Virus genome (UHGV): UHGV-0033546
From: a virus
Strand: one strand, 5' to 3'
Length of the DNA: 64,000 nt
Shown here: piece after piece, positions 3,643-26,150 of the stretch
Position numbering within the stretch: the first letter of the stretch is position 1
Layout of the letters: each line of letters begins with the position of its first letter
Program-made: the position numbers and the translations under genes
The notes under the pieces: model-generated
What the model was told of the DNA's origin: nothing
The model's input: the letters and a program-made list of their open reading frames with translations, nothing else
Database searches by the model: none

Positions 3643-4114
3643 TTGTTTTACCTAAAACGATAGTATGGACACCGTCAAATTCATGAATTTTTAGCAATTT
3701 TGGATTTAAATTATTCCATAAAGAGGTAATAAAATATGATAGCGCATTTTCTTCTGTAATTATAAATTTATTTCCTTTATCTATTTTCCAGTCATATATT
3801 GAATCATATGAATATAACGGCAATGGTTTATTGTTATAATATGATTCAGCAACATCAATATAGTTAGATTTAGTAAATGCTTGAATTGACATAAATGGAG
3901 AATTTCGTACAGTTTCAATAATTCCGATCTTTTTAAGTTTTATTTCAACATCTTCTGGAACTGGCATTGAAATAAAATCTTCTACTAGATACATGCTATT
4001 ATCATATCTTTTATCAATCATTACTGCTACTGTAATTGGAATATCTTTAGCAAACGCCATGCTATCACTACTAATATACATTTCAAACAAAATCGCTTCC
4101 ATAATTTTCCTCAA
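3617..4114 (-). CDS. hypothetical protein
   Basis: 165-aa ORF(-). Confidence 0.55.
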
Positions 4115-5823: not shown

Positions 5824-6848
5824 ATTTTGGCATATTTAGATAGCCGCATTTTAGCCATTAACCCCTGGGCAATATTATTTTTCATATATTCCATAATTTG
5901 TTCAGGGGTTGCACCTTCCTTTCTAATCATATCATTAACATCTTTTGATTTCCAGGGAGATTTATCCCAGAACATAACCCTTTCTCCTGCATTGACTAAT
6001 TTAGTCATTCGCTTAATAGTGTCAGGATGACGAGGTTCATTATCTAAGACCCACACACGTCTATCTTTAAATGGAACAATTTCTAGGTCTAATTGACCAC
6101 CCGTAATAGCTATACCATTTTCAATAAAAAGTGAATCTATAGGTCCTTCTAGAACATATACATCACCATCTTTAACTCGTTCGACTCCATATATTTTTGT
6201 TGCCTCAGGATAAGCTTTAATGGTGATATATTTTTGAGGAGCATCTTTCTTTAATGCACGTCCTTGAAAAGACTCAGCTTTTCCATTAGCATTATAAATT
6301 GGAATAACAAGACGAGGCTCAGAAATTTCCTTTTTGTATGTTCCTGGTGCTATACTATTAACCAATTTTGGCCATTCAGTTGTAAACCAAAGATATTTCC
6401 ATTTATCCTTTGGAATACAACGAGCTTTTACGTATTTTATAATTGGATGGTCTTCCGCCAGTTTATCTAATCTAACACATGACGGAAGAGATTTAATTAT
6501 TTTCTTCTCAGGCTGTTTAGGAAGTTCTTTAGGTTTTTCTACTGGACGACTTTTACCTTTTTCTTTTCTTATTTCAAAGATATACTCGCGATATAAATCA
6601 GGTTCAAACTCCTTTAAATATATTCCGATTGGTGCATGATAGTTACAGTTATAACAATGAATATTTCCTTCATTATTATCGCCATAATACCATCCACGGG
6701 CTTTATTTTGATCGGTTTTTGAATCTCCACAAACAGGGCATCTAAACCGCAATTTAAAAGTTGAACTATTATTTACTTGTGTGAATTTAGGTAAATGAGC
6801 CAATGCACGGTATGCAAACTCATTATCAATCCAAGGTATTGATGACAT
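5820..6848 (-). CDS. 61: DNA primase gp61
   Basis: 342 aa; zinc ribbon CPVCGDS...CYNCNYH; TOPRIM-like region. Confidence 0.9.
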   Translation of the reverse strand: MSSIPWIDNEFAYRALAHLPKFTQVNNSSTFKLRFRCPVCGDSKTDQNKARGWYYGDNNEGNIHCYNCNYHAPIGIYLKEFEPDLYREYIFEIRKEKGKSRPVEKPKELPKQPEKKIIKSLPSCVRLDKLAEDHPIIKYVKARCIPKDKWKYLWFTTEWPKLVNSIAPGTYKKEISEPRLVIPIYNANGKAESFQGRALKKDAPQKYITIKAYPEATKIYGVERVKDGDVYVLEGPIDSLFIENGIAITGGQLDLEIVPFKDRRVWVLDNEPRHPDTIKRMTKLVNAGERVMFWDKSPWKSKDVNDMIRKEGATPEQIMEYMKNNIAQGLMAKMRLSKYAKI

Positions 6849-9674: not shown

Positions 9675-10019
9675 TTAAAAGAATTTAAATTTTTTCTTTG
9701 ACCTTTTATTAAATGCATCTTGTAGTTGCATTGTAATACATTTTTCTACATGAGGAGCTAACTCAGCTTTTCTTTCTTGGTCAAGAACAGCAAAGTCCAT
9801 TACAACCTTTCCATCAACCCAATCTAATTTTGTCACATACACAATGTGTGTAGAACCATCTTCTAGTTTAATGACAATCTCCTGGATAACATTTTCCATG
9901 GCAGATTTAATTATCTTAAGAGATTCATTAAAAAGACGTTCTTTTCTTTCTTCTTCCCCCTCCGAAGAGGGGGATTCATCGATAATTTCTAGATCTAAAT
10001 CTAAATCATCTTTATTCAT
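9675..10019 (-). CDS. 40: gp40-like head assembly protein
   Basis: 114 aa from ATG 10019 overlapping uvsX stop (ATGAATAA); alternative ATG at 10037. Confidence 0.5.
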   Translation of the reverse strand: MNKDDLDLDLEIIDESPSSEGEEERKERLFNESLKIIKSAMENVIQEIVIKLEDGSTHIVYVTKLDWVDGKVVMDFAVLDQERKAELAPHVEKCITMQLQDAFNKRSKKKFKFF

Positions 10020-11193
10020 TAAATTCTTCCATATCACTTAACTGATCTAGGTCAGTTTCTAAATCAGCTGCTGATTTACTTTTACTTTCTGGAGATTTAA
10101 ATTTTTCAACCTTTGAGTTAATCAATTCATCAACTTCAGCTTCAACAATTTCATTACTATCAATAGCACCTAATTGATAAGCACGTTTAATAGCATCTCG
10201 GAATGGCTGATGCTTAAATAAAGGACCCCAGAATGTAGTGCAGTTGGTATCTTTTGCACGCCAAGATTTTTCTTCGCGAATCATCTCGCCGGTTTCTTCG
10301 TCAAGAAATTCACGAGCATACCAGCCATTTTTTGGTTTTACCACAAATCCTAATTCAAGAGCCATATCTAACAATCCAGAATAAGGATCGATACCACCGT
10401 CAAATTTAACATCAATAAAGAATTTACTTTTTTCTTTAACAGTACGAGATTTTTCTACATTTAGAACAAATTGATACCCCTGAAGATCAGAACCATCTTT
10501 AATCTGGCGCTTACCGATAATGAATACAGTATCAGCCGAATACATTACGCCTGTACCACCTGTCATCACGGTTTTACTAAACATTTCAATTGTTTCAATT
10601 GTATGGTTAACCGCAACACATGGAATATTTTTAATGCTAAAATAAGGAGTAACAATACGGAATAATGACTTCAGCGATTTAGCACGAGTCATATCTGCCA
10701 CAGATTTTTCATTCAAGGCATCTTCCGTTTCTTTCTTAGAAGCCATATTACCGATTGAGTCGATGAATACAATAACCTTTTCACCACGCTCAATAGCTTC
10801 AAGCTGATTCACCATATCAATTTTCAGCTGTTCAACTGACTGGATTGGCGTATGAATTACTCGTTCCGGGTCAACACCCATGGATCGCAAATAAGCTGGA
10901 GTAATACCAAATTCGCTATCATAAAATAGACAAACCGCGTCAGGATATTTGTTCAAATACGCCGCAACCATAGTCAAAGACATATTTGATTTAAAGTGTT
11001 TAGAAGGACCTGCAAAAATGGTTAAACCAGACTGCATACCACCATCAATCGCACCAGAAATAGCGATATTAAGCATTGGGATTTTTGTGCGAATTACATC
11101 CTTTTCATTAAAGAATTTAGATGTAGTCAGTTCAGCAGTCATTTTAGAAGTGGAAGCTTTAATCAAACGGGATTTTAAATCTGCAATAGACAT
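10012..11193 (-). CDS. uvsX: recombinase UvsX (RecA-like)
   Basis: 393 aa; Walker A GPSKHFKS; close match to recalled T4 UvsX. Confidence 0.9.
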   Translation of the reverse strand: MSIADLKSRLIKASTSKMTAELTTSKFFNEKDVIRTKIPMLNIAISGAIDGGMQSGLTIFAGPSKHFKSNMSLTMVAAYLNKYPDAVCLFYDSEFGITPAYLRSMGVDPERVIHTPIQSVEQLKIDMVNQLEAIERGEKVIVFIDSIGNMASKKETEDALNEKSVADMTRAKSLKSLFRIVTPYFSIKNIPCVAVNHTIETIEMFSKTVMTGGTGVMYSADTVFIIGKRQIKDGSDLQGYQFVLNVEKSRTVKEKSKFFIDVKFDGGIDPYSGLLDMALELGFVVKPKNGWYAREFLDEETGEMIREEKSWRAKDTNCTTFWGPLFKHQPFRDAIKRAYQLGAIDSNEIVEAEVDELINSKVEKFKSPESKSKSAADLETDLDQLSDMEEFNE

Positions 11194-11270
11194 TCATTTT
11201 TTCCATAGGCATCATTATATTTTCCTCACTGGTTAAAGATAGAGTAATTATAACACAATAAATTTAGGCA

Positions 11271-12119
11271 TTAATCAACTGCTATTGGATGAATAGCATT
11301 AAACTTATGAAATGCTTCTGATTTTTCTTTACGCGAAACACACATACGAAGAACCTTTAATGGCTCGTCTTCTTCACCCAACGATTTTCGTTTTTCAATA
11401 TTAGAAGTTTTCCAACGAGCTTGCTCTGGAAACTCTCTATTGATTTGCTCAAGAGCTCTATTATGTTTTGAATTACTACGAATTGAACTACACCCACCAG
11501 GAGCTTGTGCTTTTCCAGATACAACTAGATATTTGAACAAGGCCAAATGCGGATAACCTTGATTAATTAAATTGAGAAATGCATACATATCTTCGCATAA
11601 ATCAATTTTTCCATACCCAATTTGTTCTGTGGTAAGTTTTCCTAAATCATACCATGTATTTGTGAATCCATATGAATTTTCACGATAATTACCCCAAGAT
11701 GAAGTAATTTTAAAAATTGGTAGACGAGCATGGCCATGATAATACCCGCAATCCATGGCATCTTCAACGTATTGAATCAATTCATAGAACTGTTCACGAG
11801 TTAATTGATTAATTTTATCTACGCAGCGACGATCATCTTTCTTTCGCATTGAACTCATACGAATAGTAGTATCATCATCAATCATCCAAATTCGTTGACC
11901 TGCATACATATCAGTAATTGCTTTACGAGTACCAGCAATTCCGTTAACATCATCAGGAATAGTTATAATTTTAGCTCTAGACCCGTAAGCGTCATAATAA
12001 GCTTTTTCTTCATGTTTACGCACTACAATATGGGGTTCATAATCAGTCGGAAACATATCAAGGGCAGAAACTGCCCCGACACGCTGATAACTTGGAATTA
12101 CGAATTGAATCATTTCCAC
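11271..12119 (-). CDS. GT-A-type glycosyltransferase at the beta-gt locus (possible T2/T6-type beta-alpha glucosyltransferase)
   Basis: 282 aa; N-terminal FVIPSYQR and DxD (WMIDDD); not like 351-aa T4 beta-gt. Confidence 0.55.
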   Translation of the reverse strand: MEMIQFVIPSYQRVGAVSALDMFPTDYEPHIVVRKHEEKAYYDAYGSRAKIITIPDDVNGIAGTRKAITDMYAGQRIWMIDDDTTIRMSSMRKKDDRRCVDKINQLTREQFYELIQYVEDAMDCGYYHGHARLPIFKITSSWGNYRENSYGFTNTWYDLGKLTTEQIGYGKIDLCEDMYAFLNLINQGYPHLALFKYLVVSGKAQAPGGCSSIRSNSKHNRALEQINREFPEQARWKTSNIEKRKSLGEEDEPLKVLRMCVSRKEKSEAFHKFNAIHPIAVD

Positions 12120-12850
12120 TCACCATTATAATCTTTTTTCGCAATATGAGTTTCGCCAGTATTCCACCAATGGTCAACCAAATAAAACTGATTTTCGTAC
12201 ACATGAAGACTTCCGACATTCCATATAATAGAACCTGCTTTATACTGTCGTGATGGGTCGCCTGCATTCAAATCAGATACTAATTTATCTAGTACGTATT
12301 TTTGCCACGCATAATCATTACGATAGCCTGCCCAGCAGTCATTGCTTCTCATATTAACAACTGCATTGACTTTCTTATCACGAATCAGGTACTGTACTGT
12401 ATTAGTACACATGAAATCTGACATGCCGTCTTTGTTGTAGTCAAACTGCATAGATGGACGAGTATAAATCATGATACCACGCCGAGAATCAGGATTTTGA
12501 CCAAGTTCAGCTAAACACATATCATACTGGGCATAGTTATTTTCTGACCAGATAGCCCAACCATAATTCGAGTTAATTTCGCCTTTAGAAGATGCTACCT
12601 GCTGCCAAATCTTTGGTGTTTCACCTGGAATATCTTTAACAAACAAGCTCTTAGATTTATACCATTCAAGTTCACGCTGAATGTATTCATCATTAAGAGC
12701 GCCAAAAATAAACGGTTCATCTGCTACAAATGATGCGCCAATAATTTCAATAGTTTTAACACCAGTTTTATCAACTACGAAATCTTTTTCCTTTAATGCA
12801 AGCCCCAAATGAAGACGGATTTCTTCAACTGTCATAGAGTCACTAATCAT
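12110..12850 (-). CDS. 42: dCMP hydroxymethylase gp42
   Basis: 246 aa; thymidylate-synthase-like fold; near-identical to recalled T4 gp42. Confidence 0.9.
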   Translation of the reverse strand: MISDSMTVEEIRLHLGLALKEKDFVVDKTGVKTIEIIGASFVADEPFIFGALNDEYIQRELEWYKSKSLFVKDIPGETPKIWQQVASSKGEINSNYGWAIWSENNYAQYDMCLAELGQNPDSRRGIMIYTRPSMQFDYNKDGMSDFMCTNTVQYLIRDKKVNAVVNMRSNDCWAGYRNDYAWQKYVLDKLVSDLNAGDPSRQYKAGSIIWNVGSLHVYENQFYLVDHWWNTGETHIAKKDYNGEWK

Positions 12851-12857
12851 TTAAACC

Positions 12858-13007
12858 TCAATTGATACATTCATATTTAACTTGTAACAGTAATAAACTC
12901 CAACCTAAAATAATAGTTGGAATCATAAGAGGAACCGTTACACTATAGTATATACTTATTATAATCATCAAGATTAAAAGCAATGCTGCTATAATTTTGC
13001 TTTTCAT
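12858..13007 (-). CDS. hypothetical small membrane protein (49 aa)
   Basis: ATG 13007 overlaps imm stop (ATGA); MKSKIIAALLLILMIIISIYY... Confidence 0.35.
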   Translation of the reverse strand: MKSKIIAALLLILMIIISIYYSVTVPLMIPTIILGWSLLLLQVKYECIN

Positions 13008-13255
13008 TCCTTCTCTCTGATGATAATTACTTGATTTGGTTGTGCAGACTTTTTAGTTTCACCTGCAATTGACCAAATAAATGTAATAAACCAACCAATA
13101 ATTGACCAATTAAACAGTAAAGATGTGAAAAAGATTCCTACTGTCGATTTTGACCCACGCATCAAGGCGATGAACCACGGAAGCATGTATATAATAATAG
13201 CCAACACGCCTGAAACTAAAACCATAAAAATTGAACCTGCTACTAAAGTTTCCAT
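13004..13255 (-). CDS. imm: immunity protein Imm (superinfection exclusion)
   Basis: 83 aa, two TM segments; position between 42 and 43 as in T4. Confidence 0.6.
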   Translation of the reverse strand: METLVAGSIFMVLVSGVLAIIIYMLPWFIALMRGSKSTVGIFFTSLLFNWSIIGWFITFIWSIAGETKKSAQPNQVIIIREKE

Positions 13256-13262
13256 GTTTTCC

Positions 13263-13643
13263 TCACTTAGTCAAATTTTTTACACATGAATTATAAGAAT
13301 TCACTACATACTCCATCGGAGCATTTTTACCAGTACGCCATTGGTAATTATTAGCCCAATTAGCCCAAAGTTCGGCACAGTAGTTTTCAATTTTTTCTTC
13401 GCGTGTAATTACATCTGAATTACGATATGCTTGAGCAGATTCATCTGGACGAATAGCCTCGTCAAAATTCGCCTGCATTTGTTCTACCGTCTGTTTTGGA
13501 GCTTCTTTATAACACTTGACGTTAGGATTATAAAACTTACTTGAACAGTTTACAATTTTTCCTACATCAGATTGATTTACTACCGGTCCTTGAGCTACAC
13601 AACCAGTAAGACCCAATGCAATAACTAAAATAGTGATTTTCAT
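13263..13643 (-). CDS. predicted lipoprotein
   Basis: start re-assigned to ATG 13643 (GGAG SD); MKITILVIALGLTGC lipobox; 126 aa. Confidence 0.55.
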   Translation of the reverse strand: MKITILVIALGLTGCVAQGPVVNQSDVGKIVNCSSKFYNPNVKCYKEAPKQTVEQMQANFDEAIRPDESAQAYRNSDVITREEKIENYCAELWANWANNYQWRTGKNAPMEYVVNSYNSCVKNLTK

Positions 13644-24931: not shown

Positions 24932-24949
24932 AAAGGGCCGAAGCCCTTT
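24932..24949 (-). terminator. CUUCGG-tetraloop hairpin overlapping alpha-gt stop
   Basis: AAAGGGC-UUCG-GCCCUUU on minus strand. Confidence 0.5.
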
Positions 24950-26150
24950 ATTTTGTAATAATGTCAAACTGTTCTTTAAAGCAGAAGCTTGAATCTTGAT
25001 GCTGATACAAAAATTCATAAGCTTTTTCTCGCTCACGGTCATAAAGAGCTCGGTCAGATGACAGTTCTTTAATACGCTCGAATGTCGATTCCATGTCATT
25101 TTCGTCAAACCAAACGATACCGCTATCATGAGAAATTAACGGAGTATTATCAACACGGAATTTTAAATTTTCGCCAGTAGATTTCCAAAATACCGGAATT
25201 GTTCCACACGCTCCAAGCTCGAGATGAGTATATTCTAAAGAACGTTGTAGATATTTTTTGTCCAACTTACTCAACTGATAACCAAAACCGGATTTACTCA
25301 TGCGTTCAAGCATTTCGCTATTTACATAACGATCAAGAATTTGCGTTGGCAAATTAGGAGCAATTTTAATTTGGTCTACTTGATGAAGACGATAATACTC
25401 GTATGGAATTCCTTTTTCTTTAATAGGAATGAACGCTGGAGAACGTTCCAGACCTTCCATAATAGTACTTAGCCCAGCAGGTTTAAGATGTTTTTCGTGG
25501 AAATCAAACATCTGATAAAAACCTTTCCATGTAGTCGTACGACCAATCCAACGATTGACATTCATGTTAATTTTAGAAACATCTTTCCAGTAGGTTGATC
25601 GAACCTTCGCAATATCCATAGGAGGCTGAAAGTTGTATACAGTCGGTGCTTCTTCAATATCATCAAACAGAGAAACCGTTTCTGGATACCATTCTTTCAT
25701 CAAAACTTTATTAAAATCGCCATTATCAGAATGACTAAAAATAACATCAGCTCGACGAACAGTTTCTTCTAATCCCAAATTTCGACGCAAAGAAAGAGAA
25801 GAATGGTCATGTTGATAAACTACAACACGAACCGAAGGTTTAATGTTATCAATAATTTTTTTATAGTTATTAATAGTGTCTTCTTCGACTGAAGTAGCAG
25901 GAACTGAATTGATAATTAGAATATCACAATCATTTACCAGCTTAAGCGTTTTATCATATTCTTTTGCCAATAAAACCGGAATTGAAAATGATTTATAATC
26001 ATGTGCGCAATTACGAGTAAATGATTTATCTTTAGCATAAACCAAAGTTACTTCATGACCATTTTTAATAAACCAATCACGTTGCTCGAGAGAAAATTTA
26101 GTTACACCACAACCTTCAAGACCCCGAGCCATAAAAATACATACTTTCAT
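24948..26150 (-). CDS. a-gt: DNA alpha-glucosyltransferase
   Basis: 400 aa nearly identical to recalled T4 alpha-gt. Confidence 0.9.
   Translation of the reverse strand: MKVCIFMARGLEGCGVTKFSLEQRDWFIKNGHEVTLVYAKDKSFTRNCAHDYKSFSIPVLLAKEYDKTLKLVNDCDILIINSVPATSVEEDTINNYKKIIDNIKPSVRVVVYQHDHSSLSLRRNLGLEETVRRADVIFSHSDNGDFNKVLMKEWYPETVSLFDDIEEAPTVYNFQPPMDIAKVRSTYWKDVSKINMNVNRWIGRTTTWKGFYQMFDFHEKHLKPAGLSTIMEGLERSPAFIPIKEKGIPYEYYRLHQVDQIKIAPNLPTQILDRYVNSEMLERMSKSGFGYQLSKLDKKYLQRSLEYTHLELGACGTIPVFWKSTGENLKFRVDNTPLISHDSGIVWFDENDMESTFERIKELSSDRALYDREREKAYEFLYQHQDSSFCFKEQFDIITK

Follow-up and report, generated by a model that had tools for sequence, protein, structure and literature searches.

In the window, that is, the whole 64-kb stretch of viral DNA analysed here, uvsX and gene 42 are separated by a gene that is almost certainly an orthologue of the ba-gt gene of phages T2 and T6, the product of which would attach a second, beta-1,6-linked glucose after alpha-gt has acted and so produce gentiobiosyl-hmC. 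The gene is an already known and routinely annotated one, every element of the finding has been published, and ba-gt stands at this spot in nearly all T4 relatives.

The gene and its start codon

The genes and signals of primary concern are the following.
11271..12113, minus strand: ba-gt (TAGT) coding sequence, 280 aa plus stop, predicted GT-A fold, second-glucose enzyme
12110..12113, minus strand: ATGA overlap of the ba-gt start and the gene 42 stop, read from the sequence
12110..12850, minus strand: gene 42, dCMP hydroxymethylase, 93-98% identical to gp42 of T4, T6, T2, Some and JK23
24948..26150, minus strand: alpha-gt, DNA alpha-glucosyltransferase (GT-B), 400 aa, Pfam AGT PF11440, E=2.3e-235

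In the list of open reading frames the gene was entered as 11271..12119 on the minus strand with 282 aa and a GTG start, and it is flanked by uvsX (10012..11193, minus strand) on one side and gene 42 on the other. Translation, however, most likely begins at the ATG at 12113 and yields 280 aa, because this ATG overlaps the stop codon of gene 42, is preceded by a Shine-Dalgarno-like GGTGAG and corresponds to the Met at which every homologue in the alignment starts (M-IQFVIPSY), and because exactly this 280-aa sequence is on deposit as QVW08851.1, [quoted passage not shown] (16 contigs). The GTG at 12119 was dropped in its favour on the grounds of the homologue starts, the gene 42 overlap and the deposited sequence. 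The initial annotation, which described a 282-aa gene between uvsX and 42, was thus correct in location, but 280 aa is the likelier length. In addition, the ATGA overlap suggests that gene 42 and ba-gt may be translationally coupled.

Identity with the T2 and T6 enzyme

Winkler and Rueger (Nucleic Acids Res 1993) reportedly cloned and sequenced the ba-gt genes of T2 and T6, and the enzyme also goes by the names ggt and glucosyl-DNA beta-glucosyltransferase, EC 2.4.1.28. The window protein matches PHROG 842, "beta-glucosyl-HMC-alpha-glucosyltransferase", over residues 1-275 (E=1.1e-88, 298 bits) and Pfam PF20691 (TAGT) over residues 3-207, covering positions 2-205 of the 205 in the profile with 38.3 bits, which is above the gathering cutoff of 27.5 bits. 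The hmC of T-even phages arises at the nucleotide level via gp42, not by a TET/JBP dioxygenase, so the "TET-associated" name of the family is unfit in the T-even context; gene 42 is annotated as dCMP hydroxymethylase in the T4, T2 and T6 records.

The protein is 100% identical to the copy of Salmonella phage Lv5cm. Comparison with the T2 and T6 enzymes, which had been suggested as a check in the initial annotation, gave 275 of 280 identical residues (98.2%, five differences) for the enzyme of T2 and 273 of 280 for the T6 reading frame, where one of the seven differences is a stop codon in the T6 record. From phage vB_Eco_Some the protein differs at five of its 280 residues, all of them at non-conserved positions. 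By tblastn it was found in 690 phage records, 110 of them at at least 99% identity and 472, essentially Tequatrovirus, at at least 95%, while a second group at 60-80% identity comprises T4-like phages of Klebsiella, Enterobacter and Citrobacter.

That the frame arose by chance or is non-functional is so improbable as to be negligible; the only point in its favour is that ORF lists are compiled mechanically, and it is refuted by conservation. The full-length frame is kept in 686 phage records with identities down to 47%, 37 nucleotide differences from T2 at the DNA level lead to only five amino-acid changes, and the fold prediction given below is confident. Furthermore, a HMMER scan of 1.84 billion representatives in a library at 50% identity yielded 333 family clusters, so the wider TAGT family is large.

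The order uvsX / ba-gt / 42 / imm is common to the window, T2, T6 and phage Some. The T2/T6-type glucosylation scheme put forward in the initial annotation is therefore upheld by the PHROG 842 match, the identity to T2 and T6, the same synteny and the presence in the window of alpha-gt, which had been placed at 24948..26150 and is indeed a real ORF with the strong PF11440 match listed above. The alternative offered alongside it, a different sugar modification, is unsupported, for phages with about 98% identical proteins have been measured to contain alpha-gentiobiosyl-hmC (PMC13390438).

Fold and conserved residues

The AlphaFold2 model built on a 48-sequence alignment (pLDDT 93.3, pTM 0.91) shows one Rossmann-like alpha/beta/alpha domain in agreement with known GT-A structures, and the top structures retrieved by Foldseek were the GT2 enzymes TarP, AvpGT, TarS, K4CP and SpsA. 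Sequence searches of the PDB gave nothing significant, either with the single protein (best E 0.75-2, unrelated proteins) or with the 48-sequence profile, so the fold assignment rests on the predicted structure. The best profile match was a sub-threshold one to AvpGT (9jma, a GT2 beta-glucosyltransferase, E=0.11), in which IPSYkR is aligned with IPTYNR, DDD with DDD and eDyyf with EDWDF. The T2/T6 beta-glucosyl-HMC-alpha-GT has been assigned to PF20691, with a GT-A fold and as a sister to GT2 (PMC13216743). The motifs are located as follows, residues being numbered from the ATG.
12081..12098, minus strand: IPSYQR, residues 6-11, a GT2-like "IPTYNR" nucleotide-sugar-binding start
11871..11879, minus strand: DDD, residues 79-81 (in WMIDDD, 76-81), DxD metal/UDP-sugar motif after strand beta-4 (model residues 74-78)
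11589..11591, minus strand: D175 in "CEDMY", candidate catalytic base of the GT2 "ED" motif, a putative role

Conservation was read from an alignment of 177 diverse TAGT family members. R11 is Arg in all 173 ungapped sequences, D80 and D175 are kept in 177 of 177 and D79 in 176 of 177, followed by G207 (171/177), D81 and G206 (169/177 each), R63 (168/177) and R212 (164/177). All of these residues, from R11 to R212, are present in the window protein. The full conservation of D175 and the sub-threshold AvpGT alignment are consistent with a role of this residue as catalytic base. Accordingly, the GT-A-like N-terminus with a DxD motif noticed in the initial annotation is confirmed in IPSYQR and WMIDDD and in the predicted GT-A fold, and the structure prediction proposed there returned a glycosyltransferase fold at the high pLDDT given above.

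The slot shared with T4 beta-gt

When the window protein was compared by BLASTP with T4 beta-gt (351 aa), no similarity emerged (best E=3.3), and tblastn of T4 beta-gt over the 64-kb window gave no match (best E=7.4). In Pfam, T4 beta-gt matches PF09198 and a GT-B-type family, and the window protein matches neither. The unlikeness to the 351-aa T4 enzyme remarked on earlier therefore holds in both alignment and family assignment. As candidates, a relative of T4 beta-gt and a transferase of another sugar were dropped in view of the null BLASTP and tblastn results and the gentiobiosyl-mdC carried by the relatives.

In the T4 region fetched for comparison the order is uvsX, segA, b-gt and 42. The gap between uvsX and ba-gt in the window (11194..11270) is 77 nt; the segA homing endonuclease gene is located there in T4, but not in the window, T2 or T6. 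TAGT has been described at a position syntenic with T4 beta-gt in a 2026 AEM paper (PMC13390438), and according to Petrov et al. 2010 beta-gt is missing from T2 and T6, which have ba-gt in its stead. The initial description of the gene as one "in place of" T4 beta-gt is right about the slot, but in one respect its direction has to be reversed, because phages of the T-even type usually have alpha-gt plus ba-gt, and it is T4 that departs from the rule (PMC2993671; PMC13216743).

Pathway and proposed mechanism

In the proposed pathway, gp42 would make 5-hydroxymethyl-dCMP, which would be carried through the dNTP pathway to hm-dCTP and incorporated into DNA as hm-dC by the phage polymerase. Alpha-gt, with UDP-glucose as donor, would then attach an alpha-linked glucose to the hydroxymethyl group, creating the acceptor of ba-gt, and the 280-aa ba-gt protein would place the glucose of a second UDP-glucose on the first in beta-1,6 linkage to give gentiobiosyl-hmC. 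As to catalysis, the conservation and the sub-threshold profile alignment suggest that residues 79-81 (DDD) would bind the diphosphate of UDP together with a divalent cation, that contacts to the nucleotide-sugar would be made by R11 and R63, and that D175 would serve as the catalytic base. The reaction is thus presumed to be GT2-like, metal-dependent and inverting; an inverting enzyme acting on UDP-alpha-glucose would link the sugar in beta configuration, in line with the known product.

The addition of a beta-1,6-linked second glucose after alpha-gt, giving gentiobiosyl-hmC, is established for ba-gt (PMC2993671; PMC13216743). T6 with ba-gt deleted contains only alpha-glucosyl-hmC and turns Brig1-sensitive (PMC11078745), and Tequatroviruses with alpha-GT and TAGT, including Some, contain alpha-gentiobiosyl-mdC but no beta-glc-mdC (PMC13390438). 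It could be supposed, from the occupation of the exact T4 beta-gt slot, that ba-gt takes 5-hmC itself as acceptor or transfers a different sugar, and so stands in for T4 beta-gt instead of extending the alpha-glucose. [quoted passage not shown] With alpha-gt present and beta-gt absent from the 64-kb window, the T6-like route from alpha-glucosyl-hmC to gentiobiosyl-hmC is the predicted one.

Extent of gentiobiosylation and the alleles of T2 and T6

The fraction of gentiobiosyl-hmC differs among phages: it is about 5% in T2, about 40% in the Durham phages EL, BGP and Geo, and about two thirds in T6 and Some (PMC13390438). For T6 a value of about 72% is also given, against about 5% for T2. The extent thus varies among close relatives, and sequence alone does not reveal its value. 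The DNA of the window phage is nevertheless expected to be T6-like, with a large fraction of gentiobiosyl-hmC and without beta-glucosyl-hmC, since all family-conserved residues are intact.

An orthologue that is weak or inactive here, as it apparently is in T2, would leave mainly mono-alpha-glucosylated DNA with a few percent of gentiobiosyl-hmC. The T2 gene is apparently intact and yet gives about 5% (cited in PMC13390438), and close relatives do differ in extent; the window gene, however, has an intact ORF with all conserved residues in place, among them R11, a position at which His is confined to the T2 lineage, and its five differences from Some are non-conserved while Some itself has about two thirds gentiobiosyl-mdC. 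A weak enzyme is accordingly considered unlikely, and a T6-like active one is preferred.

Two peculiarities of the reference alleles were observed. In the T2 stretch compared (LC348380.1, 1501-2343) codon 11 of ba-gt is His, whereas it is Arg in the window (12081..12083), T6 and Some, and R11H is carried by all T2 records in the phage collection and by SV76; a 40-mer with the T2-type change was found only in seven T2 records and SV76. R11H may plausibly explain the low gentiobiosyl content of T2. The broader proposition, that the long-known gap between T2 (~5%) and T6 (~72%) stems from the sequence of the enzyme itself, is a tentative one, judged slightly less probable than its opposite. If it is true, the window phage with the consensus Arg would be a high-gentiobiose, T6-like phage, and its DNA would resist glycosylases specific for alpha-glucosyl-hmC such as Brig1.

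In the T6 record MH550421.1 (compared stretch ~3950-3955), codon 10 of ggt is a TAG amber codon, as against CAG (Gln10) in the window and all other phages compared, and the gene is annotated as 261 aa from Met20, a product that would lack R11 and the first strand as well as the conserved IPSYxR beginning. The 40-mer containing the amber codon is absent from all other phage records, and the codon reflects either a mutation specific to one stock or an error in sequencing. The amber codon and the resulting annotation are relevant to anyone modelling "T6 TAGT" from MH550421.

Neighbouring sequences

Within gene 42, nucleotides 481-540 (about 12311..12370 of the window) contain 20-22 differences per 60 nt from T4, T2, T6 and Some. 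In this dense patch VVFGF (residues 172-176) is replaced by CWAGY, and in a second one SRH (219-221) by ENQ. The same gene 42 variants occur in Shigella phage JK23, which carries, between 42 and ba-gt, an ORF for a 213-aa GIY-YIG/NUMOD3-like homing endonuclease that the window lacks. The window allele of gene 42 may be an endonuclease-resistant target site or the trace of a co-conversion.

Between gene 42 and imm, a strongly hydrophobic ORF of 49 aa (MKSKIIAALLLILMIIISIYY...) lies at 12858..13007 on the minus strand, its stop overlapping the imm start. The T4 copy (6228..6377 of the fetched region) is 100% identical, and the ORF is unannotated in the T4, T2 and T6 records, while in vB_Eco_Some it is annotated as "Phage protein". 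Consensus scans of 10900..13400 revealed no excess of promoters (14, against 11.4±4.0 in shuffled sequence) or terminators (1, against 1.0). At 12061..12077 on the minus strand, inside codons 13-18 of ba-gt, a hairpin rich in G+C precedes a T-rich tail (GGGGCAGTTTCTGCCCT TGATATGTTT); this arrangement is probably due to chance, because the terminator count is no higher than in shuffled sequence.

Significance

The ba-gt gene decides whether the hydroxymethylcytosines of the phage carry one glucose or gentiobiose and hence influences the sensitivity to modification-dependent defences. GmrSD-type enzymes such as BrxU cut both the mono- and the gentiobiose forms (PMC13216743; PMC13390438). The practical gain for the window is a correct annotation and a predicted T6-like modification pattern, and the current understanding is unchanged.

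Comparison with known systems

The closest system is that of T2 and T6, in which ba-gt has the same length, the same uvsX-42 position and the same alpha-gt partner as the window gene. The window protein has K33, Y40, K92 and I101 where the relatives have E, N/H, R and V, respectively, all at non-conserved positions, and it has neither the T2-specific R11H nor the amber codon recorded for T6 in GenBank. The signature of the Pfam TAGT family, consisting of R11, R63, DDD, D175, GG(C) and R212, is common to the family and the window protein. The GT2 enzymes of GT-A fold, TarP (6h1j), TarS (5tze), AvpGT (9jma) and SpsA (1h7l), show 8-16% identity to ba-gt; their acceptors are lipid, teichoic acid or glycan, whereas that of ba-gt is a sugar on duplex DNA. 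T4 beta-gt (PF09198, GT-B) occupies the same genomic slot as ba-gt but is unrelated in sequence and fold. Both enzymes create beta linkages on phage hmC DNA, presumably with UDP-glucose as the shared donor, but T4 beta-gt glucosylates hmC directly, while ba-gt extends alpha-glucosyl-hmC.
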